From contig CBFIFQ010000001.1 in NCBI GenBank assembly GCA_965661905.1, positions 1,138 through 65,137 of the forward strand: DNA of 64,000 nt, written 5' to 3'. A program made the position numbers and the translations under genes. The stretch is from Opitutales bacterium (lineage in GTDB: Bacteria; Verrucomicrobiota; Verrucomicrobiia; Opitutales; Seribacteraceae). Below are positions 2,386-54,976 of the stretch, piece after piece. Positions within the stretch are counted from its first letter, which is position 1; the number at the start of each line of letters is the position of its first letter. The notes under the pieces are model-generated. The model saw nothing but the letters and a program-made list of their open reading frames with translations. It searched no databases and was not told where the DNA came from.

Positions 2386-3624
2386 CTACTGAAGCTCGTG
2401 GATGAACAAACCACTTCGAAGCTTTGGTTCAAACCAAGTTGTTTTAGGCGGCATAATTTCTCCAGCATCTGCAATGGCGAGGAGCTCAGCCATGGATACG
2501 GGAAAAAGGGCAAAGGCGACTGCCATTTCACCAGAGTCTACCCGCCGTTCCAGTTCGCCTAAACCACGGATACCCCCAACAAAATCAATCCTTGTATCTT
2601 TCCGTAAGTCTTGAATACCAAGAATCGGATCCAGGACTTTCTCCGACAAAAGAGTGACATCCAGGTTCTCCTTGGGGTTATCCGAAGAAATAACTTCCTT
2701 CGGGTTCAAGCTATACCACTTCTTATCAAGATACATGGAAAAAACACCCTTAATTGAAGGACTTTGAGCGGACTCCAATTCTGAGATTTCAAAAATTCGC
2801 TGAAGCTTCTCCTTGAATTGATCAGTGGACATGCCATTCAGGTCTTGAACTACTCGGTTATAATCAAAGATTTTTAACTGATCATCTGAAAATAAAACCG
2901 CCATAAAAAAATTATATTCTTCCGTTCCATCATGGTTAGGGTTGTTATCCTTCTTTTGCTGCCCTACCCTCGCAGCTGCCGCTGTACGGTGGTGTCCATC
3001 TGCCACATAAAGATCCGGAACAGACTTGAAATCATTTTCAATCCTCGAGATAGAAGATTCATCATCGATAACCCAGAGCTCATGCCGGATGCCATCATCC
3101 GCGGTAAAGTCATAGACCGGGTCCGATTGAGTCGCGTTCGTAATTACCTGATTGATGGAATCAAGCCCGCGGTAAGAAAAAAATACAGGTTCTGCGTTGG
3201 CATTTTGAGTTTCCACATGCCTGACCCGGTCATTTTCCTTGGCAGTCCTGGTCAGCTCATGCTTCTTGATATGACCGTCATAATATTCCTGATAATGACA
3301 GCAGCCGACGATTCCAGTCTGTTCACGACCATCCATGGTTAACCGATAGATATAAAAGGATGGAGTTGCATCTTTTTCAATAATTTGTTCGGAGCGTAAA
3401 AAATTGAGATTTTCAAGTCCCTGGTTGTATACATTTGCACCATAAGGATCAATGTCATCAGGCAGTTCAAGTTCTGGCTTAATCACCCGAAGAAATGAAT
3501 ATTTATTGCCCTCTGCCTCTTGCCTGGCTTCCTGGGCGTTTAATACATCGTAAGGACGGGATGCAACATCTTTTGCATACTCAGGTTTTGGGCGTAGTGC
3601 TCTAAAAGGTTTGAAGGTGGCCAT
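2386..3624 (-). CDS. DUF1015 family protein
   Basis: The N-terminus MATFKPFRALRPKPEYAKDVASRPYDVL and the internal LYVADGHHRTAAA motif are typical of DUF1015. Confidence 0.8.
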   Translation of the reverse strand: MATFKPFRALRPKPEYAKDVASRPYDVLNAQEARQEAEGNKYSFLRVIKPELELPDDIDPYGANVYNQGLENLNFLRSEQIIEKDATPSFYIYRLTMDGREQTGIVGCCHYQEYYDGHIKKHELTRTAKENDRVRHVETQNANAEPVFFSYRGLDSINQVITNATQSDPVYDFTADDGIRHELWVIDDESSISRIENDFKSVPDLYVADGHHRTAAAARVGQQKKDNNPNHDGTEEYNFFMAVLFSDDQLKIFDYNRVVQDLNGMSTDQFKEKLQRIFEISELESAQSPSIKGVFSMYLDKKWYSLNPKEVISSDNPKENLDVTLLSEKVLDPILGIQDLRKDTRIDFVGGIRGLGELERRVDSGEMAVAFALFPVSMAELLAIADAGEIMPPKTTWFEPKLRSGLFIHELQ

Positions 3625-3670: not shown

Positions 3671-3973
3671 TTACTCTTCAGCTTTTTTCTCAAGCGAAGC
3701 ATTTTTTTTGGCTTTGAATTGCTCAATCAACTTTTTGGCTGAACCGGCCGCCAGTGTACTTTTGAGTAATCCACCTTGGCTTGGTAAGCCCGATACAGCT
3801 GCTGCTTGGTTTGAGGATTGCATCTCCTCTAAGATTTCTCTCCGGAAAATTGAAATGGAGCGAGGGGCAGAGATTCCAATCTTTACTGAATCCCCCTCTA
3901 TTTTAGTGATCGAAATCTCAATTTCATCACCAATTTTTATACCCTGCTCTACTTTACGAGATAATATCAACAT
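3671..3973 (-). CDS. csrA: carbon storage regulator CsrA with a long C-terminal tail (100 aa)
   Basis: [47 protein letters not shown] is the canonical CsrA core. It lies directly downstream of fliW. An extra tail of about 45 aa is rich in Ala, Lys and Ser. Confidence 0.9.
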
Positions 3974-3990: not shown

Positions 3991-4446
3991 TTAGAGACCT
4001 TCACCACCAACATCAAGAATGTGGCGGGCAGAATAATCTTCATGATTATTGATGATACATTGCTTGCCGACCAATGTCTTGCGGTTCACGATAATGGGAC
4101 CGACAAGGTTAAGTGAAATTTTACTCGCTTGCTCAGGAAGCAAGGTGACGATGTTGAGGATCATCGTATCTTCAGGTCCTGTTATTCCAAGTACCTTAAT
4201 ATCAGCATCTGCTATTTCGACAGAATAATCAGGCAATACACCACCTGGCTCTAGCACAACAAAAGCCAAGCCATCTTCCTGCTCTTCCCGCAACCACATG
4301 AAGGGTAATTCCTCTCTGTCAAACATGAGTTCCATGTTCCGGATTTTAGAAAAACCAAACAAACCCTGAGGGAGCGAGATTTTGTTTTGACTTGTGGAGG
4401 AGTCAAGGTCCGGGTTATTGGAGTCCTCTCCTAAATTCAGTTTCAT
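3991..4446 (-). CDS. fliW: flagellar assembly factor FliW
   Basis: [18 protein letters not shown]...[20 protein letters not shown]...[21 protein letters not shown] match FliW family landmarks. The flgL-fliW-csrA synteny supports the call. Confidence 0.85.
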
Positions 4447-4453
4447 AAAGAAA

Positions 4454-7400
4454 TTACAAGTAATTCAATAAAGAAGTGTTCAGCAGTTGAGCACCAACCT
4501 GCATAGCAGCCTGATAGGCAGTGGATACCCTCGAAAGCCTCATAATGGTCTCGGATAAATCGATATCCAGGTCTCGGGATACTCTCTGATCAAGTTGCAT
4601 GAAGTAATCTTCATCATGGGCCTTGACGGTTTCCATACGAACCATGCTGGCAGTAAGTTCCCCCATTTTATCGATAATATTGTCTTCGAGCTCAATAAGT
4701 CTCTTTTCTGAATCCTCGACTTCCTGGGAATAAAAAGAAGGGGTTGCGTTTGCTAACCCATCACGAAGCTCTACGAGAGTATTGACCACATCACCCAATT
4801 CGGCGGTGCCTCCATCTGCAGAATTTAAGAAGGATGAAATAGCACTGTCTTTGCCCACATAAAACTCTGAATTATTTTCAGAACCCATGTAGGTTACATT
4901 TACAATCTCACCTTTCTCGTTACGGTGATCAAGAAAGGTTTTCGAACCTGTGGCAAAAGAAAAAGTGTCTCCAATTCGAGGACCGATAGGTGCGAGGCTC
5001 GTAATAGGCTCAGTGGGTTCATTGATCTCAAAACCGGCGATTCTGAATGGACCAGGGTCATTGGGGTTTTCTTGCCACAATATTGATGCCTCAAGAGATT
5101 CCTGCCCAACCTGAATCGTAACCTTTGTGAAATCTTCAGGGATATTGCCATCTTGAAAAAAGTACCTACCCGCTTCCTCAACTTTTAACCCAACTATATT
5201 ACCGTTTGCATCGACAACAGCTTTTGCGGATGCATCCGAACCGGCTGCACCAGCAGTTGGGATTGAGACTATGGGTGCATCATCACGGGTAGCATCAAAT
5301 TGAAGGACATGCTGCAGTGGGTTTTCTACAATTTCCCATATGTAATTTGCGACCTGACTTTGACCATCCACACTTGGTATAAGTTCAGAATCAGGAAGCA
5401 CCATTTCTGTAGAGCCAAGAAAATCGGCTGATGGAAGAAAATTATTAAAATTATCCCGCATACTCCGATAGTATTGACCATCGTATAACACAATGTCACC
5501 TGAGTGATATGTTTTATTGGAAGACCACTCAGACCCTTGTGTTCGTACCTCAGCAGGCACTTTAATCATTTTATTATCTGCCAGAAGGGCTTCAAACGCT
5601 GCATTACTATCTATATTGGTAGCTTCTGTCGCCACATAGTAAGCTTTCTCTTCCTGGTGGAAGATGTATTCACCGGTGTCTAAGGCAATGTCCGTATTTT
5701 CAGCTTCACTCGAAAATACTGTTTCCTGTCCTTCCCTCGGCAGTGCTGTCAGCTTGAAGACTGTACCATCGCTACGAGCCGAAGCTTCTCGAATATTGGC
5801 AATGGGAGCTGAAGGGTTTGTGGGATCAAAACCTTCAACATTGGTATCAGTATTCGAATTTGCAGTGGCAATGTAATACTTGTCTAGGGATTCATCGTAG
5901 ATGTATTCCCCTTTCAATAAATTAAATGGTTCGCCTTCTACTATGGGTACAACATTGGGCGGGAATTGATCTTGTATGGACAGCCATAAGGAGCTGTCAG
6001 TAGCTAAGGTGTCATCAGTTGGAATGAAATATTGACCATCTAACTGCTCAATAGGCTGTTCAAAGGTGATCATTTGACTGGAAATGATCTGACTTCCCTC
6101 AGCCGCTGCAGCAAGCCTATACTCTTGGGTTTGGTGGTCAAAGTAGACCGTCCCTTCAGACTCGGAACCTGATACATCGAAAGTTGCAACTGGGTAAGAA
6201 ATGGTCTTTACCTTTTCTTCAGCTAGTAAATCTAAATCCTCGGGAGTTGTATCAACTGGCAGTGCATCTTGAGAGAAAAGGAGGATATTGCTATTATGGG
6301 CCTTAGCTTCAGAAAATTCATTAAACAACCTACCATCCAAGGAAACATGAAATTCTTTAAGGGTTGTACCCGTTGCCTGTACATTCCAATCTTCACGGTC
6401 AACGCTGTACCCTGATGGTAGTTCTTTCCAGTAAGTCGATATTCCTTCAGCAGGTTTGTGATTGAAATTATCATTTATTTGAGACTCCCAAAGTTTGCCT
6501 TCAAATTCGGTGATACTTCCAAGTTCATAGGTCTGGAGCCTTTTCCATGGATCGGAATGGGTAACGGAAAGGCGAGATGTACCATCTGAAGAAGAAATCC
6601 CCACATTAATTTCTTGTGTCCAGGTTGGGTCAATCGAATCTTCAGGGATTTCTTCGTAGGTAACGCCTTCATTTTCTACTCCAACCGTAATGGGACTAAA
6701 GAACTCTTGAGTAACTGAGTTGACCGCTTGAAAAGGAGATGCACTGAAGTAGGTGGGAGCAACTTCATCAAAGTTTAGGTTGGCATTCGTAGCTTGATCA
6801 AGAACATCAGCACTGACATTGGTTATTACCCCATTTATTTTACCAGAAAGTGTCGCTATGGAAGTGCCAAGACTCGACCATTTTGCAGATCTTCCTGGGT
6901 TTGTGACGTCGAAGTCAGCAGATGTGGAGTCGCTACTTATGGCAACAGATGCTTCGTAGTAAATTCCGTTGTGCCTGACAACTGCACCCTGCTCGTAGTT
7001 TTTCACTTCCCAATCTGTAGAAAGAGAGGAAACCGAATCTTCATCAAATGAATAAAAGTCGCTGCCATCATGCACCACATCACCAGCTGAGTAATTGGCA
7101 AAGGCATCAAATTGCCCCTTCATAATTTCGCCTGCAACTACAACCTGCTGATTGTTTGCCTGAAGTACATCACCTGAGGTGTAAGCTAGGTTGGGGTTAA
7201 AGGTTGAAAGCCCTGCGGGGTTATGCGGAACATCATTGCTCAGCGTGCCGTTTGGATCAAGGACTTTGTGCCAGGCTCCATCGTGAAAGACGAAGTCATT
7301 TTCAGCATATTCATCAGGTCCCCAGTTCCCCTTGACGGGATCTTGGAACTGCAAGAAGCGTGGGTTGTCTGGGTCCGTGATATCATCCAAAACCTTGTCT

Positions 7401-8434
7401 CCTGCCTTAAAAGAAAGTTTATCGCTCCAAAGAGAAAAAGAACCATTCGGTGCTTCAAAGACGGCATCATCCACAATTTTCTTTTCGGAGGGAGTCAGGG
7501 TTTCGTAGGAAGAGCCTGGGTAAAGAATCTCAGTCTGCGCTGCTCTTTTTTGAGCAATTTGGTTAGGATAATAATGACTTGCGTCCCACTGCGTCCGGTA
7601 CTCTGCCTTGGCGTCGTAGGACTTCCCGACAGTGCCGTAAACTAATAAGTCGCCATTTGTAGATATTTCCGAATATAGTTTTATATCCGATTTCCGAGGA
7701 GTTTCAGAACCAACCGATCCACGGATGAAAGCCCTGTAGTTTTCACCTTCAGGTTCAAGAGGTTCAAAGTCAGAAAGTATCTCAGGGTCTTCGTTAATTA
7801 ACTTATTCGCAAGTTCAGTAATTTTATCAGTAGTTAATCCATCAGCAGTTGCTTCAATTACATATTCCCTTCCGTTTAAATGAATAACCACTTGTTCACC
7901 TGCCTTGATCTGCCTGGAACCATCGGCTCCAATATCACCCACAAAGCTCGAATTTAAAGATATAGTTGATCTTTGCTCTTGGCCCAATTGAATTTCAGAA
8001 TTCCCAAACTCAGGCTTTAATTGAGTGCCAGCAAAAAGGGAGCGCCCTCTATGCCTGGCGTTAACCCGATTCAGTGCTTCCTCAATGAGTTGATTGATCT
8101 CATTGCCATAGGTCTCCATAGCAGGGCCGTTAAGGCTGGAACCGGCAACCCTTGATATTTCCTGGGCACGCTGGTTAAGTTCCCTCAGGTTATCTAAGTT
8201 TAGATGCCCAGCATTAAGGAATTCAGAGGCATAAGAAGCATTTCTTTGATACTGGGCAAGTTTCCCCTTTTCAGTATCGATATCGATGACGCGGCCAAGA
8301 CGCATGCCATCATCTTCCGGTAGAGTGATTTTTTGCCCACTCGAAATTTGTTTATCCAATTTATAGCGCTGCATATCCAAGTCACGAATGGTATTCGTGA
8401 TGGAGTCAGAAACACTAAGGTTAGGTAAACGCAT
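4454..8434 (-). CDS. flgL: flagellar hook-associated protein 3 (FlgL), giant 1326-aa form
   Basis: Flagellin-type N-terminal helices (SITNTIRDLDMQRYKLDKQISSGQKI...) and C-terminal helices (DLSETIMRLSRVSTAYQAAMQVGAQLLNTSLLNYL). It follows flgK directly. There is no Cys in 1326 residues. Confidence 0.85.
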   Translation of the reverse strand: MRLPNLSVSDSITNTIRDLDMQRYKLDKQISSGQKITLPEDDGMRLGRVIDIDTEKGKLAQYQRNASYASEFLNAGHLNLDNLRELNQRAQEISRVAGSSLNGPAMETYGNEINQLIEEALNRVNARHRGRSLFAGTQLKPEFGNSEIQLGQEQRSTISLNSSFVGDIGADGSRQIKAGEQVVIHLNGREYVIEATADGLTTDKITELANKLINEDPEILSDFEPLEPEGENYRAFIRGSVGSETPRKSDIKLYSEISTNGDLLVYGTVGKSYDAKAEYRTQWDASHYYPNQIAQKRAAQTEILYPGSSYETLTPSEKKIVDDAVFEAPNGSFSLWSDKLSFKAGDKVLDDITDPDNPRFLQFQDPVKGNWGPDEYAENDFVFHDGAWHKVLDPNGTLSNDVPHNPAGLSTFNPNLAYTSGDVLQANNQQVVVAGEIMKGQFDAFANYSAGDVVHDGSDFYSFDEDSVSSLSTDWEVKNYEQGAVVRHNGIYYEASVAISSDSTSADFDVTNPGRSAKWSSLGTSIATLSGKINGVITNVSADVLDQATNANLNFDEVAPTYFSASPFQAVNSVTQEFFSPITVGVENEGVTYEEIPEDSIDPTWTQEINVGISSSDGTSRLSVTHSDPWKRLQTYELGSITEFEGKLWESQINDNFNHKPAEGISTYWKELPSGYSVDREDWNVQATGTTLKEFHVSLDGRLFNEFSEAKAHNSNILLFSQDALPVDTTPEDLDLLAEEKVKTISYPVATFDVSGSESEGTVYFDHQTQEYRLAAAAEGSQIISSQMITFEQPIEQLDGQYFIPTDDTLATDSSLWLSIQDQFPPNVVPIVEGEPFNLLKGEYIYDESLDKYYIATANSNTDTNVEGFDPTNPSAPIANIREASARSDGTVFKLTALPREGQETVFSSEAENTDIALDTGEYIFHQEEKAYYVATEATNIDSNAAFEALLADNKMIKVPAEVRTQGSEWSSNKTYHSGDIVLYDGQYYRSMRDNFNNFLPSADFLGSTEMVLPDSELIPSVDGQSQVANYIWEIVENPLQHVLQFDATRDDAPIVSIPTAGAAGSDASAKAVVDANGNIVGLKVEEAGRYFFQDGNIPEDFTKVTIQVGQESLEASILWQENPNDPGPFRIAGFEINEPTEPITSLAPIGPRIGDTFSFATGSKTFLDHRNEKGEIVNVTYMGSENNSEFYVGKDSAISSFLNSADGGTAELGDVVNTLVELRDGLANATPSFYSQEVEDSEKRLIELEDNIIDKMGELTASMVRMETVKAHDEDYFMQLDQRVSRDLDIDLSETIMRLSRVSTAYQAAMQVGAQLLNTSLLNYL

Positions 8435-8443
8435 ATAGGTAAA

Positions 8444-11400
8444 TTATTTAACCAAACCAAGCACAACAAGTTCTAGCATTTTGTCGAGAGTATTTAGAAC
8501 CCGTGCGGAGGCCTGAAATGATCTTTGAAATTGCATCAGGTCAGATACTTCCTCATCAATTGATACAGAACTAACGGCACGTCGTTGGTCTAAAAGAAGA
8601 GTTTCGAGAGACTTTTGGTGAGCATGGTTGTCATTGAGGTCAGCCAGTGAATTGCCAATATCCGCATTCATTGTAGAGATGTGATCAGTGAATTCACCAT
8701 CGTTGGCTAAGTCTGCAATTTTAAAGGCAACCTCATTAGCCCCTTCTGCAAAATCATGAGTTGATTTAAGGTTTTCTACGGAAAGGTCATTATCGACCCT
8801 GAGACTTGTAGCAAGGTTCCAGTCATTTTGCAGGACGGCATCAAAAGAAAAATTGTCCCCAATAATAAATGCTTTCTCACCTTGTTCGATCCTAAAAGGA
8901 ATCGTTTCATAAGCAAGTAGTAGTGATCTGCCATCATCATCAGTCCCAACAAGTTTGTCATTCCCAGGGTAGCTTTCATCCAATTCGAGAGTTACATGCT
9001 GCATCTTATCAGCTGAAGCATAAAACTGATAGATGTCTGCATTATTAGGATCATCAAGGAATAACTTTAAGTCATCACTCTCTCGAACTAGTGCTTGGTT
9101 GGGGACTTGTTCAGGGAAAATGGGGGTAGTATTAACAATAGTAAAGGTATCAGACTCGGCTGTAGGGAGCGTCATGTTTACTTCATCCCTAAAAAGTTGC
9201 AATTCTCCTGTGCCCTCAACGCCATAAAGACCATATTCTTCTTCCATGATCAGGTTGTTTCCTGCAACTGCGCGGGTAAGGAAGGCATCAAAACCAAAAA
9301 GATACCCACCCTGGTCGTCATCCGGGTTATAAATAGCATTCACTTGAGTGACGAAGTCCGAAACGAGATCGTTCAAACTCGTCCGAAACCTTTCCATTTC
9401 GTTCGCCCTTGCTGATTGATATCCGTGGATAGCACCTGCACTCAGGTCCAACTCTATACCATCCGAAAAAATTGCGTCTGATGAAGGAAATGAATTGCCC
9501 GCATTGAGGATATTAAAAGTCGTAATTTCACCATTCTTAACAACGGCCTCAGCAATGCCAATGTTAACTTCCTGAAGAGTCCCATTGGCAAGGTTATGAC
9601 CAGAGGATGAAATCTTTCGGATTACACTGTTAGGATCCCCATCCACGACTTTGGGGTTAAAAACATGGAAGTTAGATGCCCACTCTGAAGAGGAAGGATC
9701 AAAGGATGCAATAACTGCCGGATCAGTTATGATTGAAGGAGCGGAATCAACTATGAAATGCTGATCATTTAGCTCATCATAGTATACCTCATTATCAAAA
9801 AACTGAAGGGTTCCCTGGGTTGTATCCAGGTTCTTGACGCTTGAGTCTACAAAGGAGTTAAGCCTAACAAAAGAATCGGATTCATCGTAATTCGGGATGT
9901 CACCTTCAGCGATATCTTGAACTGCAAGGTAGTAGAGCCTTTCATTATTATTGTTAAGACTTGAAATAATATCACCTTTAGCAATTGATAACTCACCATT
10001 TTCATCCAGTCCTTCTTCTTTGGCATTTGCCATAGAGGGCAGGCTGTCTCCAATTACCCATAGGGAGTCCAAAGTTTGGTCGCCTGCTGCTTTAGGGACT
10101 TGCTGTTCGTTTTCTGTGTCTCCTTCGAGTATCCCGGAAAGGTCGGTTCCTTTGCTTACATTAGAAAACACTTGGTAATAAGTGCCTTGGTAAAGGATAA
10201 CTTCACCAGCTAAATATGTACGGCTAGCTAATCCATCTTCACCTAATTCCTCAGAGACAGGGGCAACTTCTTCTGTGGCTTGAAGGAATTTGCCTTCGTA
10301 ATAAATTTGGTCACCTTGCTGGAAAGTCTCAATATCAGAATGTCGCTTTTTTATCTCCTGCACTTGACCATTAGGTGCTGTGGAAATCTTCATAAACTTC
10401 CGTGTATCACTGACATCGTCACCCTTTTGGGTATTGGTAAGGGCTTGGTAGTAGGAATCCCCCCGATAAAAGACATCACCTTCTTTGCGAGCAATTTCCG
10501 TGAGAAAAGGGACCGTGTTAGCTTGACCTCCTCCAGTAACATTCGACATTTCTTCTCCATCATCAACCGGGGCATTAATCCCAGCTTCACCCACTATGAC
10601 AGCTTCTGCGTTCTCTCCTTGAGTGTTTCCTGTGACATCTACATTAACGAGAGGATCTCCTTGCTGTACTTCGTCACCTTCTTGAACAAAAACTTCATTG
10701 ACCGTTCCGCCTTTAGGAGCGGAAACAATCTCTCCTGTATCTGTTTCAACAAGATTTGATGTGGGCTTGGGAGGAAGTAAAGAAACTAAGATCGGTCCCT
10801 CAGAATCGTTGTACAAAGAACCTCCATCCAATACCTCAAAACGACCCAGGTTGCCATTGGCGTCAATTTTTGCTCTTACTTTAGCCGCTTTTCCATTGGG
10901 GTCATTGGGGGCTGCAATTACAAATTCCTGTCCCCAGTCGTTGGTAATATTTTTGGGACCCATTGGGTCAAGGAGGTTTACCTTCTCATTGGCAGTACCC
11001 TGAACATACAAGTTTAGGAAACCGGAGGGTTTTCCATCGACCACATCTTCCTCGACTTTGAAATCCATTAATTGAGACAACTCTTCAAGAAGAGCTTGCC
11101 GTTTATCACGATAGGTTACCGCTTTGCCTTTATCCTGAAGCTCAAAGCGGCGTACTTGCTTGTTGGTTTCATGCAGTTGAGCTAGCACCCGGTTTACATC
11201 ATCAACGGATCTTTTAACAGTTTCGGAAAGATCTTCTTCAATGGAATCCAAGCTGCTACCTGCATCATTAAACCTTTTGACCAAGGTGCCAACTTTGTTG
11301 AAAAGTTCCTGTTTTATGGTTGGCTCATCAGGTGAGGCGGACAACTCTTGAAAGGCATTAAAAAAATCATTGAGGGCACGGGTCAGACTGCCTGGGGCAA

Positions 11401-11764
11401 GGTCACTGTCATGAAGGTCATCCAGCCCGACATTTATACCGTTTCGGGTTATAGTTTCACCGAGTGCACCCTGAAGAAGGCTAAGGATCTCCTGTTGAGC
11501 TTCCAAGCTTGCGGTTTCAGACAACTCATTGACCACTCGTCTATCCAGGAGCTCCGACCTTGCATGTTCAAGCCCTGCTGCTTCAAGACCTGATGTCTGA
11601 AGTTCACCAAAGCTACCGTACATTACACCTTCCCGGGCCAAAACTTTTTGGCGGGCATAAGTTTCGTCATTTACATGGGCTAAATTTTGGCCAGCAATTT
11701 CCGCAGTCTTCGCATGATAGCGTAAGGCTTCGCTGTTTTTGCTTATTTCTCCAAGTAAAGACAT
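8444..11764 (-). CDS. flgK: flagellar hook-associated protein 1 (FlgK), 1106-aa form
   Basis: The N-terminal axial-protein motif (AEIAGQNLAHVNDETYARQKV) and the FlgK C-terminus (VSIDEEVSDLMQFQRSFQASARVLNTLDKMLE) are present. It lies between flgN and flgL and is Cys-free. Confidence 0.9.
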   Translation of the reverse strand: MSLLGEISKNSEALRYHAKTAEIAGQNLAHVNDETYARQKVLAREGVMYGSFGELQTSGLEAAGLEHARSELLDRRVVNELSETASLEAQQEILSLLQGALGETITRNGINVGLDDLHDSDLAPGSLTRALNDFFNAFQELSASPDEPTIKQELFNKVGTLVKRFNDAGSSLDSIEEDLSETVKRSVDDVNRVLAQLHETNKQVRRFELQDKGKAVTYRDKRQALLEELSQLMDFKVEEDVVDGKPSGFLNLYVQGTANEKVNLLDPMGPKNITNDWGQEFVIAAPNDPNGKAAKVRAKIDANGNLGRFEVLDGGSLYNDSEGPILVSLLPPKPTSNLVETDTGEIVSAPKGGTVNEVFVQEGDEVQQGDPLVNVDVTGNTQGENAEAVIVGEAGINAPVDDGEEMSNVTGGGQANTVPFLTEIARKEGDVFYRGDSYYQALTNTQKGDDVSDTRKFMKISTAPNGQVQEIKKRHSDIETFQQGDQIYYEGKFLQATEEVAPVSEELGEDGLASRTYLAGEVILYQGTYYQVFSNVSKGTDLSGILEGDTENEQQVPKAAGDQTLDSLWVIGDSLPSMANAKEEGLDENGELSIAKGDIISSLNNNNERLYYLAVQDIAEGDIPNYDESDSFVRLNSFVDSSVKNLDTTQGTLQFFDNEVYYDELNDQHFIVDSAPSIITDPAVIASFDPSSSEWASNFHVFNPKVVDGDPNSVIRKISSSGHNLANGTLQEVNIGIAEAVVKNGEITTFNILNAGNSFPSSDAIFSDGIELDLSAGAIHGYQSARANEMERFRTSLNDLVSDFVTQVNAIYNPDDDQGGYLFGFDAFLTRAVAGNNLIMEEEYGLYGVEGTGELQLFRDEVNMTLPTAESDTFTIVNTTPIFPEQVPNQALVRESDDLKLFLDDPNNADIYQFYASADKMQHVTLELDESYPGNDKLVGTDDDGRSLLLAYETIPFRIEQGEKAFIIGDNFSFDAVLQNDWNLATSLRVDNDLSVENLKSTHDFAEGANEVAFKIADLANDGEFTDHISTMNADIGNSLADLNDNHAHQKSLETLLLDQRRAVSSVSIDEEVSDLMQFQRSFQASARVLNTLDKMLELVVLGLVK

Positions 11765-11780
11765 CTTAAAATATCAATGA

Positions 11781-12308
11781 TTATGCAGACTCGTTAATAC
11801 TGGACCGGTTATGAGCAAGATTTTGCACATTACCGGTACGACTGTAGGTTTTGGAATGGGCACTGGGGTTGGTGACGCTGAGTATCTGCTCCGTTACCTC
11901 GGATAAGCGGCTGAGTAGGCGTTGGTTTTGCTCAATTTTTGAGCGAACTTTACTGATAAGGTTGTTAATTTCCTCCACTAAACTCTCAAACATAGGGCGG
12001 GTAACATCTGGGAAGTGTGGTATGAGCTCTGAAAGATTTGATTCAGATGAAACCCCAAATGAATGAGCTAAACTTGTGACAAACCCCTGCCTTCTTCTTT
12101 GTAAAATTTGGCTGGCTTCCATCTGGGTTTGAACAGATTGATTGATCTCAAGCAGGCTTTCTGGTCTGCGGTCTAGGATGTTTTGCTGCTGAGCGGAAAG
12201 CAGACCGAGCAAGCTTCCATATTCCTGGAGTTCATCGCGAAGTAAACCAAGCAGGTCTTCCCAGGTAAAGTTGGCGGTAGGCACTGAATTCTGTACAAAT
12301 GATGACAT
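11781..12308 (-). CDS. flgN: FlgN-like export chaperone
   Basis: The ATG at 12308 lies just after the flgJ stop (12319). The longer 12404 start would overlap flgJ. The helical WEDLLGLLRDELQEYGSLLGLLSAQQQNILDRRPESLLEIN fits FlgN, as does the position upstream of flgK. Confidence 0.6.
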   Translation of the reverse strand: MSSFVQNSVPTANFTWEDLLGLLRDELQEYGSLLGLLSAQQQNILDRRPESLLEINQSVQTQMEASQILQRRRQGFVTSLAHSFGVSSESNLSELIPHFPDVTRPMFESLVEEINNLISKVRSKIEQNQRLLSRLSEVTEQILSVTNPSAHSKTYSRTGNVQNLAHNRSSINESA

Positions 12309-12318
12309 GTTGAAAAAA

Positions 12319-12657
12319 TTATTTCTTTTCAGGTTCTGGTATAGGTGAACCTGGTTTTGAAAGTTGTTGCTGAAGAATATTGGAAACACCAAAACCTCCA
12401 CCACTGGCTACGCTTTCCGAAATTGCATCGGTAAAGAAGTGACGATACATACGGTGCGCTCCTCCATCTTCATTAAAAACGCCTTTAAACATGGGCTTAA
12501 GGGCTTCTTTTAAAAACTGTTTTACGAGAACAGACTCAAACTGCTGGCTGACTGCCGCAATCTTTTGGTTTTCAGAAGCATTCTTGGAATGAGCCATTTC
12601 CATAAGCATGGAAGAGTCCATGCCCACATATTTACTGCCTGTGTCGTTTACTTCCAT
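12319..12657 (-). CDS. flgJ: FlgJ-like rod-binding protein (no muramidase domain)
   Basis: KIAAVSQQFESVLVKQFLKEALKPMF...GGGFGVSNILQQQL matches the rod-binding domain. The ATG at 12657 follows the flgI stop at 12659-12661. The protein is only about 112 aa, so the glucosaminidase half is absent. Confidence 0.75.
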   Translation of the reverse strand: MEVNDTGSKYVGMDSSMLMEMAHSKNASENQKIAAVSQQFESVLVKQFLKEALKPMFKGVFNEDGGAHRMYRHFFTDAISESVASGGGFGVSNILQQQLSKPGSPIPEPEKK

Positions 12658-28663: not shown

Positions 28664-29518
28664 CTATCGTTTAAGGTTTACTGCTTCAGTTAAAATGGCA
28701 TCCGAGGTTGTGATGACACGGGATCCTGCCTGAAAGGACCTTTGGTAAGAGATCATAGCAGCGAATTCATTGGTTAAATCCACATTTGATAATTCGAGGG
28801 CATATTGCTTGATCTTGCCATTGGAACCAACGGCAGGGATGGTGTTATCCAAAATACCTGCCAAATTCTGGCCTTCTTGCCCGTTTGAATAAAAACCGTT
28901 ACCCACCCTCCTGAGGTATTGAGGGGACTGGAAGTTTGCGATCTTAAGCTGACCGGATTTCCGAATAATATCTTCACCCTCACGATTTACCACAAGATTA
29001 ACCACACCATCTTCCTCAATCCTCCGGGTAAGAAGGGTCTCTCCATCTTCAAGCCCTACTGTCATCGGTTTCCCGTCAACATCAAGTAATTGGAATCGGT
29101 ATTGATCCCGGGTGACAACAAATCCTTCCACCGTAGATTCGAAAGCACCAGCTCTAGTGTAGAAAAAGTCACCGGTGGTTGGGTCTTGCAATTCGAAAAA
29201 ACCACCAGCATTTGGCAGAGCTTCACCCTGAATTGCGATATCTAAATCCAATCCAGTTACCTCAATAGTGCCTTGGTTAAAGTCTGATGAAAGTGAACTA
29301 ACATGAACACCTGTGCCATGTTGCTGAATATTGTTGCTGGGGACACCATCAGCACCAGACTCTGCATCATTGACATGCATGTAAAAGTTATCAGAAAAAT
29401 TTGCTCGAGATGCCTTGTAGCCAAGTGAATTAACATTGGCGATATTGTTCCCCAATACTTGCAAGCCTTGAGTAAGACTCTTCAAGGAAGAAACGCCGTT
29501 ATGTAGAGAAGGTATCAT
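28664..29518 (-). CDS. flgE: flagellar hook protein FlgE (short, 284 aa)
   Basis: The N-terminus has LGNNIANVNSLGYKASRANF and the C-terminus has LSNVDLTNEFAAMISYQRSFQAGSRVITTSDAIL. It follows flgD. Confidence 0.85.
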   Translation of the reverse strand: MIPSLHNGVSSLKSLTQGLQVLGNNIANVNSLGYKASRANFSDNFYMHVNDAESGADGVPSNNIQQHGTGVHVSSLSSDFNQGTIEVTGLDLDIAIQGEALPNAGGFFELQDPTTGDFFYTRAGAFESTVEGFVVTRDQYRFQLLDVDGKPMTVGLEDGETLLTRRIEEDGVVNLVVNREGEDIIRKSGQLKIANFQSPQYLRRVGNGFYSNGQEGQNLAGILDNTIPAVGSNGKIKQYALELSNVDLTNEFAAMISYQRSFQAGSRVITTSDAILTEAVNLKR

Positions 29519-42788: not shown

Positions 42789-44697
42789 CCCTCTCTTAGA
42801 ATCCTTAAAATCGCCGGCTGACCTCAAGGGTTTCAACTCTTCTCAACTCGAGCTACTCTCAAGCGAAATCCGAGAGCGCATTATTCACGCTACTTCCATT
42901 AATGGTGGCCATGTTGGCCCCAATTTAGGCGTAGTCGAGCTTACCATTGCATTACACTTAGCATTTGAATCTCCTCGCGATTCTTTTTGCTGGGATGTTT
43001 CCCATCAGGGTTATGTGCACAAGCTACTGACAGGACGAATCGATGAGCGTTTTGATAAAATCCGGAATACTGACGGATACAGTGGCTTTTTATCTAGGGA
43101 CGAAAGCGAACATGACGCTTATGGGGCTGGCCACGCAGGAACCGCACTCTCAGCTGCATTGGGAATGTGTATGGCCAGAGATTTAAATAAAGGGGACGAG
43201 CATGTTGTGGCTATCGCAGGGGATGCTGCTTTCACTTGTGGTATTACCTTGGAAGCACTCAACAACATCGCCTGTTCGACCAAGAAGTTCATCCTTGTAC
43301 TCAATGATAATGAGTGGTCTATTGCCAAAAATGTTGGTGCCTTCTCAAGGTACTTCAACGAGTTAATAGCGAATCCCATTTACAATAAATTCCACAAAGA
43401 CGCAGAGGCTTTTCTATCTGCTATGCCCGGCGGAAAATCTTTAATGAAATTCGTTTCCAAGGCGAAGCGTGACACAAAAGAATTATTGGCCCCTTCCAGT
43501 ATTTTTGAAAAACTTGGCATTCGATATCTCGGCCCGATTGATGGCCACGACATAGATTCCCTCGTTCATTTTTTTGAATTCGCAAAACAGTCCGATGAAC
43601 CCATCGTATTGCATATCTTGACCGAGAAAGGTCGGGGCTATCCTGTTGCACTCAAAGAGCCGGAGAAATGGCATGGTTCCGGGCCATTCGATAAGGATTC
43701 GGGCGTAATGGTAAGTTCACCTGCAGGTTCTCCCCCCAAATACCAAGATGTTTTTGGTAATGCACTTTCTTTGATTGCAACCAGTGATGACCGTGTGGTG
43801 GGTATCACCGCTGCGATGCCAAGTGGAACTGGCTTGGACTCTTTCCAGGAGAACTTCCCGGGGCGATTCTTTGATGTTGGCATTGCCGAAGAACATGCAG
43901 TCTTACTTGCGGCAGGTATGGCTTGTAAAGGACTTCGCCCCGTCTGTGGAATTTATTCAACTTTTCTCCAGCGTGCCTTTGATCCGATCGTGCATGATGT
44001 TTGCTTGCAAAATTTACCCGTCACTTTTTGCCTTGATCGGGCTGGTTTATCACCGAACGATGGCCCTACTCACCATGGGCTGTTTGATATTTCCTATTTA
44101 AGTTGCGTCCCTAATGCAGTAATTATGCAACCTCGCCACGAAGACGAATTGCAGGACATGCTCTACACTTCCATTAATCATGATGGCCCATCTTTCATCC
44201 GTTATCCACGAGGAACTGCTCTTGGTGTGCCAATTTCCCCTTCTCCTAATTCGCTGGACATTGGGAAAGCTGAAGTTATCGAGGAGGGGACTTTAGGGGC
44301 GATCTGGGCGATTGGTGACTTTGTTGCCGAAGCCCTATCAATCAATCAATTGATTAACGATGAATATGGCAAAAAATTCACCATTGTAAACGCCAGGTTT
44401 ATCAAACCTTTGGACGCAGGCTTGCTTTCCGAACATGGAAAAAAATACAAGTTAATTGCCACGATGGAAGATGGTGTTTTGCGAGGCGGGTTTGGTTCAT
44501 CGGTTGTTGATTTCCTGAATGACCTCAAGTCAGACTCAGATGTTCTTAGGTTTGGTTGGCCCGACAAATTTATTTCTCACGGAAGTTCGGTTACTCAACT
44601 CAGAAAAGAACACTCCCTTGACCTGCAGTCTATTTACAAAAAACTTTGTGCGGCCCTGCCAGGTAAATTGATAGCCCAAAACCATTTAGTTTCCTAG
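42778..44697 (+). CDS. dxs: 1-deoxy-D-xylulose-5-phosphate synthase
   Basis: INGGHVGPNLGVVELTIALH, GAGHAGTALSAALGM and GDAAFTCGITLEALNN (ThDP motif). Length is 639 aa. Confidence 0.95.
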   Translation: MINSPLLESLKSPADLKGFNSSQLELLSSEIRERIIHATSINGGHVGPNLGVVELTIALHLAFESPRDSFCWDVSHQGYVHKLLTGRIDERFDKIRNTDGYSGFLSRDESEHDAYGAGHAGTALSAALGMCMARDLNKGDEHVVAIAGDAAFTCGITLEALNNIACSTKKFILVLNDNEWSIAKNVGAFSRYFNELIANPIYNKFHKDAEAFLSAMPGGKSLMKFVSKAKRDTKELLAPSSIFEKLGIRYLGPIDGHDIDSLVHFFEFAKQSDEPIVLHILTEKGRGYPVALKEPEKWHGSGPFDKDSGVMVSSPAGSPPKYQDVFGNALSLIATSDDRVVGITAAMPSGTGLDSFQENFPGRFFDVGIAEEHAVLLAAGMACKGLRPVCGIYSTFLQRAFDPIVHDVCLQNLPVTFCLDRAGLSPNDGPTHHGLFDISYLSCVPNAVIMQPRHEDELQDMLYTSINHDGPSFIRYPRGTALGVPISPSPNSLDIGKAEVIEEGTLGAIWAIGDFVAEALSINQLINDEYGKKFTIVNARFIKPLDAGLLSEHGKKYKLIATMEDGVLRGGFGSSVVDFLNDLKSDSDVLRFGWPDKFISHGSSVTQLRKEHSLDLQSIYKKLCAALPGKLIAQNHLVS

Positions 44698-47600
44698 GGA
44701 AACAGACTCCATTCCTTTAATTCGTAATCATACTTTGCCCCCTGCCCTTGTACTTGTTGCCGGCAGTACAGCCATTTGCTGTCACTATTGCTGTATAGAT
44801 ACCCTTCGTTATTCTCCGCATTCCAATAAGTTGGATTAGTCCAATACCAGGGGCCTTTATTACTTTTAAACCAGAGTCCATTAGTATTTTTTTCCGGGTA
44901 AAGCCACACCCAACCCCAAGTCGTATGAAAGGACCACCCCGAAGCAGTAGTTATAAAGTCTCCTATCCAGCCACGGCTCCAACCGCCGGGCAACTCAACA
45001 GCATCTGTTGTATTTTCTCCGAGGTATGGTTTGATGATAATTTCACTGGATTCTTCGGTTTTGAGCCCTGAACTATCAACCGCGAGTATTGATATTGGGT
45101 GAGTACCGATTTTATCTGGGTAGGCTGTACCTGAGATGACCAACTTATTGGCCTCACTCTTACTGAAGGTTAGCCAGTCTGGCAGGTTAGGCTGAACCAC
45201 AAATGTTTCGCCATCAGGATCAAACGAATGGACCAATATCTCAATATCTTCATATTGCTCAAAGGCATATTCATTTTTAAGTAATACTCTAGGCTTAAAT
45301 ACTGAACTATTCTTAACCATTAATGGATGATTTAAGCTGAACACTTCCCCCCTCTCATTAGTTAGCACAAAGCTTACATTATAGATAATATCCTGGAGGC
45401 TGTAAGGAGGTTGGCCAGAAAGGCTTCCTGACCCATCTTCATTTATACGCAAATGGATCCAGTCAGGCAGACTTGAGTTTTGCTCGGCAATTATACTATC
45501 GTGCATCCAAGGCCCTGTTTTAAAAGGGAAAGTAAAGAAAGAGTTTGAAGAAATGGCCTGTGGTAACTGCGGAGACATACCTGGTTGATTGAGTGGGGGT
45601 CCTAGGCTCGCAAGAGTAATGACTCTTTCACTTAAAGAGAGATCATCGGAGTAGGCAAAGAGGATATTGTTTTCACGAATTGGGCTTATTGTGTCTATTT
45701 TTTGAACTCCGAGCTCAGTGGGGATAAAAGAATCATGGATATGCAAAGTACTCGGTTCTAGCTTTGCGAGATAAGTGCCGGGTCCTGCACTGTCTGTCTC
45801 CAATGAATTCAATGGATTGAACCTTTTTGAAAAAGTTGCGGAGAGGAATAAGTAACCATCCTTACTAATTTTGAAATCTGTCAACCGGTCAGTACCTTCC
45901 CCGCCATACCCTGAAAGAGATTCGCAAGTAAGATCTTGGTTAAAGCTGGCAACAAATATGTCTAGTCCTGAAGTAGAAACGACTTCATGATCTCCAACTG
46001 AAATGGAGCCATCAAACTCACCCGCTAAGTAGAATTTGTTATCTACTGAATTGTGTAACAAGCAATTACTCCTTACGGCACCACTACCAGATAATATCGT
46101 GATTTCACCTTCCAAACCGTTGCCATTGATCTTTGAAATGAAAGATGCCTTCCCGTCATTATAATAGACTTCATTCCCCCAGTTGAATTCTCTGTCAAAA
46201 TTCCCCGAAATAACTATCTGATTACCAAGTGAAACATGACCTGTTATTTGATCCATGTAAGTACCGCCAATCGGCCGAAAGCTTTGCAATTGATTGCTAG
46301 AAAATTGAGCCAAAAAACCGTCCTGGAGACCACGGGGAAATAATGGATTGCTGCCCCCACGATTGTATGCTCCCCACATTTGCCCTGAAACGGTAAAGGA
46401 CTCTTTACTGCCCACAACCGATAGAGATAAAAGGTCCTCATCTGAACTGAGAATTTCCAGAAGCTTTATTTCGCCATTTAATGATAATTCGGCAACAAAG
46501 ACATTGTACCCATCAGAACCCACATAATTCTGGTTGTTTATGGAAAGATCATTTCTGAATGTACCGCAAATCATTATTTCCCCTGTTGAACTTTGGGTGA
46601 CGGAACTAATGGCAGCTTCACTGGAAGAATTAATTGCTATCATATGAGTTAGGCTTAAGTTCGAATCGGTTAGTAAAATGAATCCATACCTAATTCCAGT
46701 TTTTTGGATTTCAACCCCCTGATAAGAGATAGCTGAAATCGCATTTCCGGCGATAAGTTTTGCTTGGTGATCTAATTCTATAATCTCAATAATCTTACCA
46801 TTTCCCTTGATACTTCTTGTCGAATGGAAGTCAGGGATCTGACCTGAATAATTCAGAGCATTATTTTTCTTAATTTGATAATCAATACTTACTTGTGAAC
46901 TGGCCCCATCGAGATCAAAAGATTGAACAACGATCGTGCCCCTGTCCTCACGGTTTGGTATTACACCAAAAATAGTTGCCTTTCCGTCACCTTCATTTTG
47001 AAGAGTTAGGTAATCTGGTGCGTTGACCAACCTAAATTCTGCAAAATTTCTATTGACTAAAGAAATTTCCTTAGAGAAAAATTCTCCTCCGAGCAATAGT
47101 AAGTCATTGATTTCCTTAAATTGAACAGGTGGTCTACTTTCAAATTTAATGAGAAGCGATTCGTTGGGCTGGGTTTGAGTTAAGTCATAAGAATCTATAA
47201 TCAGCCCCTGTTCCGAAGTAATTTTTAGAGCGGTTGTGCCATAACGATTCATCAGTAGAGTCGCGTTGCCTTCATCTCCATCGCCCAAAATATCTTTTTG
47301 CCAAATAACATCGCCATTCATCTGTTGGAGTTTTAAAATTGAATGATCTTTGGGGCTATTTTCTTCTCCTCCGCTTAGCATATCAGGCTCCTGGGTATAG
47401 CTTACCAAAGCCATTATGTTGCCAAAAGGAGTAACTCTAATAGAATCGGTAGAAAGGTTTATCCCAGGGCCCAAGTCGTTTTGCCATAAAATGTTTAAAT
47501 CTGAAGAAAGCTTTAAGATCAAAGATGAATTTTCTTCACTTACGGCAATTACTTCTTCTGTGTTTTTAACATAGTCACCACCGGTTTTGATTCTTAACGA

Positions 47601-54851: not shown

Positions 54852-54976
54852 ACACAACAATCAATCAAAAAACTTATATTTGCAAAGCTTTTAGGGTGCA
54901 GAATGATGAGTTTTGATTAAGAAAAAAGGATCCTTTATGAAATAACTCTATGCTACATTAAAAATTCTCAAAAAAG

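Follow-up and report, generated by a model that had tools for sequence, protein, structure and literature searches.

A giant FlgL (hook-associated protein 3, HAP3) is encoded on the minus strand at positions 4454 to 8434 of a 64,000-nucleotide stretch of DNA from an Opitutales bacterium (GenBank assembly GCA_965661905.1, contig CBFIFQ010000001.1), hereafter the window. Its score against the FlgL equivalog model, the solved structures matched by its family profile, the gene order of its locus, and its failure to match flagellin models together identify the product as a genuine FlgL and not a flagellin, with an insert of more than a thousand residues between the terminal helices. This giant FlgL is real, is widespread in one marine, uncultured verrucomicrobial lineage rather than an oddity of the window, and is undescribed in the literature; our search, whose coverage left out most subscription journals, found no papers on giant FlgL or FlgK, on FlgL or FlgK bearing a carbohydrate-binding module (CBM), or on imaging of the junction or flagellum of Verrucomicrobiota. 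FlgL and FlgK are usually regarded as a thin adaptor that links hook to filament, and we know of no established function for their outer domains. On balance, we think it rather probable that this FlgL would contribute to a collar that braces the hook–filament junction and presents modules on its surface.

The minus strand of the gene is read in a single frame from ATG to stop over 1326 uninterrupted codons, and translation of the plus strand gives a stop-ridden sequence. The initial annotation had described an open reading frame (ORF) of this length without stating its strand, and the ORF proved correct. The product has a mass of 146.3 kDa, an isoelectric point (pI) of 4.33, no cysteine, and a net charge of −116 overall and of −104 within residues 141 to 1199. 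Residues 141 to 1199 consist of 9.5% Ser, 6.7% Thr, 6.1% Asn, and 16.1% Asp plus Glu, in agreement with the earlier description of the middle segment as acidic and rich in Ser, Thr, and Asn, the richness in these three residues being moderate. The lack of cysteine, which had been offered as the expected mark of a flagellar export substrate, holds for this FlgL but fails as a rule for the family, with one or two cysteines present in 79 of the 120 listed homologues. The GC content is flat across flgL and its neighbors, at 0.42 to 0.46.

The assignment to FlgL comes from the two ends of the protein. The protein scores 135.4 bits against TIGR02550, the NCBIfam equivalog model for FlgL (cut-off 127.2), and the match falls into an N-terminal part (residues 2 to 199) and a C-terminal part. 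Pfam Flagellin_N (PF00669) matches residues 13 to 137 with 33.4 bits against 26.6, phmmer aligns residues 17 to 140 with Salmonella FlgL, and residues 1180 to 1326 match positions 149 to 287 of the FlgL model NF005980. A profile of 108 family members matches the FlgL chain of the Salmonella junction (9go6_L, residues 1 to 143) as well as residues 702 to 750 of 9gsx_A, a 750-aa chain present in 11 copies in the Campylobacter junction-cap structure; in the PDB, this profile matched only FlgL termini and CBM domains. The genes of the locus follow one another on the minus strand in the order flgH, flgI, flgN, flgK, flgL, fliW, and csrA, and this synteny, together with TIGR02550, Flagellin_N, and the solved-junction matches, bears out the FlgL identity first proposed. 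The flagellin-type helices had been placed only at residues ~1 to 140 and 1200 to 1326, which also stands. Pfam and NCBIfam scans found no flagellin-type match inside the insert, and the C-terminal helices of the AlphaFold model, in which residues 1085 to 1199 correspond to protein residues 1211 to 1325, begin at residue ~1211. The insert, originally put at about 1050 residues, measures ~1070 residues (141 to 1210) and occupies the site where FlgL normally carries domain D2.

A protein search returned at least 127 homologous clusters, 120 of which were listed. All but two of the listed homologues (118 of 120) are at least 1000 aa long, with a median of 1256 aa and a maximum of 1491 aa, and nearly all of the listed giants carry both Flagellin_N and CBM_5_12. 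The closest among the matches listed are full-length, collinear, and from independent assemblies (93% identical and 1332 aa long, 84% and 1327 aa, and 65% and 1323 aa), and a frame of ~1327 codons is unbroken in five genomes. These homologues of equal length confirm the continuity of the ORF, for which the initial annotation had wanted a check against a splitting frameshift. The order flgN-flgK-flgL-fliW(-csrA) is kept in 11 species-representative genomes, each of which is a metagenome-assembled genome (MAG) or a single-cell genome and bears the label Opitutales, Opitutia, or Verrucomicrobiota; on contigs of sufficient length, FlgK spans 1094 to 1142 aa and FlgL 1080 to 1502 aa, and in all 11 the giant gene occupies the sole flgL position of the locus. 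The idea that the giant FlgL is a one-off is contradicted by these homologues and genomes. FlgL proteins as large as this one are routine in related genomes, and CBM5/12, which makes up part of the insert, is a domain described before; this takes away part of the novelty first seen in the protein. For ~800 residues of the insert there is no described domain. The databases already hold the family, which JGI labels FlgL and NCBI, for several members, 'hypothetical protein' (FlgL homologues P0033, P0036, P0067, P0075, and P0086; FlgK homologues P0232, P0297, and P0299).

Selection acts on the insert as well as on the termini. In comparison with the relative of 84% identity, nonsynonymous divergence (dN) is 0.02 to 0.03 in the termini and 0.08 to 0.18 in the insert, with synonymous sites saturated, and dN of the insert reaches 0.08 to 0.25, again with synonymous divergence (dS) saturated. 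Saturation extends even to the closest genome, so that a numeric dN/dS is not derivable and the conclusion is a qualitative one: because dN is low while synonymous sites are saturated, the whole length of FlgL, insert included, is under purifying selection. The termini are 94 to 97% identical to those of relatives whose inserts are 38 to 86% identical. FlgL is also the fastest-evolving gene of the locus, with an identity between the protein of one related genome (L002) and that of the window of 66%, compared with 82% for FlgK, 83% for FlgN, and 88% for FliW, and its fastest stretch comprises residues 331 to 605 (38% identity). Such divergence is typical of regions that are exposed on the surface and possibly diversifying.

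AlphaFold modelling of residues 127 to 1326 with 108 sequences gave a mean predicted local distance difference test (pLDDT) score of 75.7 and a predicted template-modelling (pTM) score of 0.66, with confident, mostly beta parts at residues 146 to 326 and 606 to 1176 ahead of the long C-terminal helices. The domain boundaries given here rest on pLDDT, secondary structure, and conservation, and not on the model coordinates. The pTM score suggests that the insert forms a multi-domain body of fairly definite shape and not a loose string. A BLASTP map against the homologues shows residues 1 to ~330 and ~600 to 1326 conserved across the family and residues ~340 to 605 replaced or missing in most members, and many residues of the insert are invariant among the 108 sequences. 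When the insert alone was searched against 1.84 billion cluster representatives, 110 matches passed a threshold of E ≤ 1e-3, and 24 matches passed one of E ≤ 1e-30. Every long match belongs to the same FlgL family, the remainder being fragments of that family and a few short repeat matches, and therefore the insert is, as far as this search can tell, specific to one clade and to this FlgL family. The same search gave no sign that a known enzyme or adhesin had been the source of the insert.

When the insert was divided into nine overlapping fragments of 160 aa and scanned with Pfam (E ≤ 1), CBM_5_12 was all that was left once matches to T7 gp1.2, CcmE, Fe-ADH, FGAR-AT_N, and similar families, all far below their cut-offs, were set aside as noise. 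A Foldseek search of the 1200-residue model against the PDB found no neighbor for the parts outside the CBM modules; matches to GH43, teneurin, and paramyxovirus attachment proteins, with probabilities of at most 0.06, were rejected. No enzyme domain was detected in FlgL by Pfam scans of the whole protein, by the fragment scans, or by Foldseek against the PDB. The initial statement that the insert has no recognizable enzyme motif thus stands, but the insert is not featureless: Pfam CBM_5_12 (PF02839) is matched by the whole protein with 43.9 bits against a gathering cut-off of 26.2.

According to Pfam, an iterated hidden Markov model (HMM), and Foldseek, the insert holds three to four CBM5/12-type modules. 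In the fragment scans, residues 361 to 520 score 32.0 bits as a tandem and the fragment with the stretch at residue 969 scores 26.6 bits. Further CBM_5_12 matches below threshold lie at residues 412 to 429 and near residue 447, and sub-threshold scores of 18.8 and 19.2 bits were obtained. With the HMM iterated on the family, no homologue among the 120 has fewer than two or more than five modules, and shuffled controls give nothing comparable. A self-BLAST of FlgL revealed no internal repeats, and the modules therefore appear too divergent for pairwise detection. Conservation within the insert is highest in the module at residues 629 to 674, where W630, R632, L633, G639, S651, N656, P661, and W669 are invariant in 108 sequences. 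The profile of this module matches the CBM12 of a Vibrio chitin oligosaccharide deacetylase, the chitin-binding domains of chitinases (2rts, 1ed7), and All3316, a protein in the baseplate of a contractile injection system from cyanobacteria. Foldseek against the PDB gave high probabilities (0.98 to 1.0) only for CBM5/12 domains, namely the CBM12 of the Vibrio deacetylase, Serratia ChiB, and the S. griseus ChiC domain (TM 0.69, target-normalised), and among predicted viral structures the best neighbors are large phage tail or structural proteins with chitin-binding type-3 repeats, with E-values down to 3e-13. The assignment of the FlgL modules to the CBM5/12 fold, a small beta structure of three strands, is sound.

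The partner protein FlgK, whose gene directly precedes flgL, is also enlarged, a point absent from the initial annotation. This 121-kDa protein scores 171.8 bits against TIGR02492, for which the cut-off is 170.75, and its AlphaFold model (pLDDT 75.3, pTM 0.69) matches solved FlgK structures in Foldseek with E-values of 3e-9 to 4e-4 and TM up to 0.63. After these, the model matches the CBM12 domains that stand in tandem in the Vibrio deacetylase (probability 0.97 over 124 columns). Weaker lines of sequence evidence are a BLASTP alignment of FlgL residues 967 to 1035 with FlgK residues 508 to 571 (E 1e-4), weak HMM module matches at FlgK residues 428 to 449, 479 to 497, and 514 to 531, and a sub-threshold Pfam CBM_5_12 match of 15 bits at residues 513 to 532. 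Lengths of 1040 to 1826 aa occur among FlgK homologues, the longest of which carry CBM_5_12 (PF02839) in precomputed annotation. Both junction proteins are therefore enlarged with the same kind of module.

Two further features of FlgK deserve mention. Residues 347 to 375 (10640–10726, minus strand) match biotin/lipoyl and HlyD models, with Biotin_lipoyl_2 reaching 30.5 bits on an FlgK fragment; these matches are hairpins of 28 to 29 residues with pLDDT below 40, and we rejected them as a lipoyl domain. NCBI names one FlgK homologue 'biotin/lipoyl-binding protein, partial', a label that is probably a misannotation. FlgL residues 1065 to 1092 (5159–5242) and FlgK residues 291 to 318 (10811–10894), both on the minus strand, have in common the motif A-x-A-x-V-D-A-N-G-N-[IL]-x-G-x-x-V-x-x-x-G-x-[YF], which is kept in the consensus sequences of both families, with a pairwise BLASTP E-value of only 0.09. 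The motif may mark a small domain present in both proteins or a contact element between the layers of the junction.

The coordinates of these genes and regions are collected in Table 1. Further upstream lies the rest of a complete flagellar cluster, with motAB, fliA, flhA, flhB, fliPQR, fliMN, fliL, flgE, fliI, fliG, and fliF, with flgE placed between the flgD-like and fliL genes. The hook protein FlgE is small, as had been noted from the start, and has rod/hook D0-D1 domains only and no outer domains, so that one cluster combines a minimal FlgE of 284 aa with giant junction proteins. The genes fliW and csrA encode regulators tied to flagellin; despite their presence after flgL, no match to fliC, fliD, or fliS was found among the ORFs scanned in the window. 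Bacillus has a flagellin gene at the position after csrA, and the gene found after csrA here (2386–3624) encodes a DUF1015 protein. Elsewhere in the window, a 3388-aa ORF at 44694–54860 on the minus strand, with FG-GAP repeats, many bacterial Ig domains, and cadherin-like and He_PIG domains, probably encodes a giant cell-surface adhesin.

Table 1 Genes of the flgL locus and regions of their products, in positions of the window.
Feature	Position	Strand	Evidence and remarks
flgL (HAP3)	4454..8434	minus	Single ORF, 1326 aa plus stop codon
FlgL residues 1-140, N-terminal D0/D1 helices	8015..8434	minus	PF00669; phmmer; 94-97% identity in relatives
FlgL residues 141-1210, outer insert	4805..8014	minus	Between the terminal helices; 117.5 kDa, pI 4.2
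FlgL residues ~340-605, variable part	6620..7417	minus	Lowest identity, highest dN, pLDDT mostly <65
FlgL residues ~447-470, partial CBM5/12-like module	7025..7096	minus	Adds to the 361-520 score; HMM match alone weak
FlgL residues 475-524, CBM5/12-like module	6863..7012	minus	Best Pfam CBM_5_12 fragment stretch 478-501; iterated HMM E 3.5e-7
FlgL residues 629-674, CBM5/12-like module	6413..6550	minus	Most conserved module of the family; HMM E 7.5e-20
FlgL residues 969-1005, CBM5/12-like module	5420..5530	minus	Best Pfam CBM_5_12 fragment stretch 969-990; HMM E 5.8e-14
FlgL residues 1211-1326, C-terminal D1/D0 helices	4457..4804	minus	AlphaFold helices 1211-1325; NF005980; 9gsx_A match
flgK (HAP1)	8444..11764	minus	1106 aa, ~2x usual size; TIGR02492; Pfam FlgK_D1, Flg_bbr_C
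FlgK residues ~428-532, tandem CBM5/12-like hairpin modules	10169..10483	minus	Foldseek; weaker sequence lines
flgN, export chaperone family for FlgK/FlgL	11781..12404	minus	Pfam FlgN 75.3 bits; upstream of flgK also in relatives
fliW	3991..4446	minus	Directly downstream of flgL; Pfam FliW 108.7 bits; position kept in relatives
csrA	3671..3973	minus	Pfam CsrA 76.7 bits; TIGR00202 80.3 bits
flgE, minimal hook protein	28664..29518	minus	284 aa; Pfam Flg_bb_rod, LlgE_F_G_D1, Flg_bbr_C only

In the solved junctions, 11 FlgK and 11 FlgL subunits bury their D1 helices and turn D2 outward, an architecture known for Salmonella and Campylobacter only (PMC12221982), and in Xanthomonas FlgL the D2 domain is inserted within D1, decorates the D1 ring, and is proposed to reinforce the junction (PMC6155364). 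By analogy, the terminal helices of the FlgL described here would let it pass through flagellar type III export with FlgN as its chaperone and polymerise into the junction's distal layer of 11 subunits, atop FlgK and beneath flagellin. At the position of D2, a strongly acidic, mostly beta, multi-domain region of 117 kDa would project outward, with two invariant CBM5/12-type modules in a conserved scaffold (residues ~143 to 339 and 606 to 1210) and further ones in a fast-evolving cassette (residues ~340 to 605). FlgK would add ~650 extra residues with CBM5/12-like modules, also directed outward. With 11 copies of each protein, the junction would reach ~3 MDa, of which ~2 MDa would be outer domains. 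Such a collar would most likely brace the junction on an unusually thin hook made of D0 and D1 only, and would display modules of a glycan-binding type where the filament begins, with a ligand that is probably not classical crystalline chitin.

Several considerations weigh against this picture. The solved architecture of 11 plus 11 subunits (PMC12221982) makes a collar a reasonable inference, but the outer domains may instead be flexible arms. The ~800 residues of the insert with no sequence or structural neighbor in Pfam, in Foldseek searches of the PDB, or in profile searches of the PDB may carry an activity that went unrecognized. The Foldseek E-values for CBM domains are weak (0.002 to 0.3) because the query is 1200 residues long. 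The junction is also a poor place for an adhesin, with 11 copies located about one hook length from the cell. Finally, in the HMM alignment the Trp of 'DWAP' in the Vibrio CBM12 sits among residues inserted with respect to the profile of the FlgL module, and the FlgL module has an invariant N-x-N-H (N656, N658, H659) there, its other conserved aromatic residues being W630, Y636, W649, and W669. In CBM5/12, the Trp before the conserved Pro, or an aromatic pair, contacts chitin, and at what we take to be the positions of the aromatic pair in CBM5 the FlgL modules have I/N, R/D, or V/A. Because the chitin-contacting Trp has no counterpart in the FlgL modules, their binding of chitin or of carbohydrate more generally is doubtful.

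The same residues bear on the possibility that the junction is adhesive or captures ligands, with the FlgL and FlgK modules acting as functional lectin-like binders of chitin, algal glycans, or marine snow, or of the cell's own capsule or glycosylated flagellin. We regard this possibility, which could be an addition or an alternative to a bracing collar, as tentative, with perhaps a modest chance of being right. It would account for the CBM5/12 signatures in both junction proteins and for the variation of module number and type in the fast-evolving cassette, as adaptation to ligands predicts, and it fits with the faster divergence of FlgL than of FlgK, FliW, and FlgN. The best structural neighbors of the whole insert, phage tail and structural proteins with repeats of the same type, are typically surface binders, and marine Opitutales in culture have polar flagella and occur free-living as well as on particles (PMC10284914). 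However, the profile of the FlgL module lacks the Trp found before the conserved Pro in the aligned Vibrio CBM12, the residues at the presumed aromatic-pair positions argue in the same direction, and display would be restricted to 11 copies at the junction instead of extending along the filament or crowning its cap.

A more far-reaching proposal, which we consider unlikely, is that the junction of abundant marine Opitutales is an organelle in its own right, in which a ~2-MDa collar of 11 giant FlgL and 11 giant FlgK subunits would bind specific polysaccharides through the CBM5/12-type modules of its fast-evolving cassette. The flagellar base would then serve as a device for particle attachment or surface sensing, or as an anchor in the cell's own capsule. 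It is improbable that the protein is secreted cargo instead of, or in addition to, a structural part, with giant FlgL and FlgK released into the medium as soluble glycan binders and the FlgL termini used only as an export signal. Salmonella secretes hook-associated proteins in excess, the flagellum of some bacteria serves as an exit for proteins that are not flagellar, and the insert is larger than any role in the junction obviously needs, all of which such secretion would accommodate. In contrast, the D0/D1 termini are the most conserved part of the protein, at 94 to 97%, which fits polymerisation contacts and not a mere export signal, the gene fills the sole flgL position of the locus in 11 of 11 genomes, and no catalytic domain was found by Pfam or Foldseek.

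It is very improbable that the gene encodes a giant flagellin mislabelled as FlgL, which would build a thick filament like those of the giant flagellins of marine gammaproteobacteria. FlgL and flagellin have Pfam domains in common and are often confused (PMC7018530), flagellins of more than 1000 aa exist (PMC6248924), and no flagellin gene is present among the ORFs scanned in the window. However, the sole match to a flagellin model, NF009445, reaches 17.3 bits against a cut-off of 450, the Pfam scan found no match to Flagellin_C (PF00700), the best solved relatives are FlgL chains, and the gene lies directly after flgK, as flgL typically does. An assembly or gene-calling artefact, in which two or more genes were fused by a sequencing error, has nothing in its favor beyond the unusual length and is refuted by the same-length collinear homologues in independent assemblies, by purifying selection across the whole length, by the conservation of the locus, and by flagellin-type termini that make a complete FlgL only when joined.

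The reading that we favor, a genuine FlgL in a bracing and surface-presenting collar, concerns a whole lineage of common marine bacteria, in which both junction proteins remain, under selection, two to four times as large as usual, and in which carbohydrate-binding-type modules on these proteins are paired with a minimal hook. If the collar exists, no more extreme elaboration of the junction would be known, and it would be a natural system in which to probe the purpose of the outer domains, be it bracing, interaction with the cell envelope, or binding of particles. If the junction is instead a polysaccharide-binding organelle, this would be a new function for junction proteins. Because homologues are labelled 'hypothetical protein' or 'biotin/lipoyl-binding protein' at NCBI, inventories of flagellar genes in Verrucomicrobiota, including those from MAGs, may miss the junction proteins.

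The FlgL of the window resembles those of Salmonella (9GO6, PMC12221982) and Xanthomonas campestris (PMC6155364) in its family, its D0/D1 helices, the insertion point at D2, and the position of its gene next to flgK. The solved Salmonella chain has 317 residues in all, whereas the insert alone comprises ~1070 residues and several domains here, and D2 of Xanthomonas FlgL is, unlike this insert, a single small beta-sandwich (PMC6155364). Neither Foldseek nor the family-profile search of the PDB found similarity of the insert to the D2 domains of Salmonella or Xanthomonas. In giant flagellins (Bermanella, Oleibacter; PMC6248924) and enzymatic flagellins (flagellinolysins; PMC7643111), as here, the D0/D1 core remains constant while the surface region grows to at least 1000 aa or gains functional domains, and export proceeds through the flagellar channel. 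In contrast, giant flagellins are filament subunits present in thousands of copies and FlgL is a junction protein of 11 copies, and we found no sequence relation between the FlgL insert and flagellin inserts.

The modules share their fold and the signature W..Y..G[DE].V.Y.G..[YW]...P...W with the CBM5/12 domains of Serratia ChiB, Streptomyces ChiC (2D49), Bacillus ChiA1 (1ED7), and the Vibrio deacetylase with its tandem CBM12 (4NY2). They differ from these relatives in being part of a flagellar axial protein rather than a glycoside hydrolase, and in having N-x-N-H in place of the Trp before the Pro. For the insert as a whole, the best structural neighbors are large phage proteins, of the tail or otherwise structural, with chitin-binding type-3/ChiC_BD repeats (BFVD A0A385A118, A0A6B7ERG8, A0A8S5T3E0, and A0A6J7WHK8), which match with E-values of 3e-13 to 4e-7 over 770 to 1300 columns and likewise consist of long surface-exposed arrays of small beta modules. 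Their biological context is different, and with a global TM below 0.1 the likeness is limited to repeated local modules, with no sign of common descent beyond the module.

The closest parallel in size is found in Campylobacterota. The curated FlgL models matched by the protein have lengths of 287 to 827, the largest being those of Campylobacter (PRK14692, length 749) and Helicobacter (PRK08412, length 827), and C. jejuni FlgL has a 'bulky D2' (PMC12221982; PDB 9GSX). As in the Opitutales lineage, the junction-exposed outer domain of FlgL is much enlarged in Campylobacterota and FlgK is enlarged in the same organisms. Unlike the outer domains, which are unrelated, with no Foldseek match of the insert to 9gsx, the termini (residues 6 to 139 and 1265 to 1326) do align with the Campylobacterota models, at 31.4 and 30 bits against 878 and 749. 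The Campylobacter hook protein is very large, whereas the FlgL described here, which is 1.6 to 1.8 times longer than those of Campylobacterota and carries CBM5/12 modules, is accompanied by a minimal hook protein of 284 aa.

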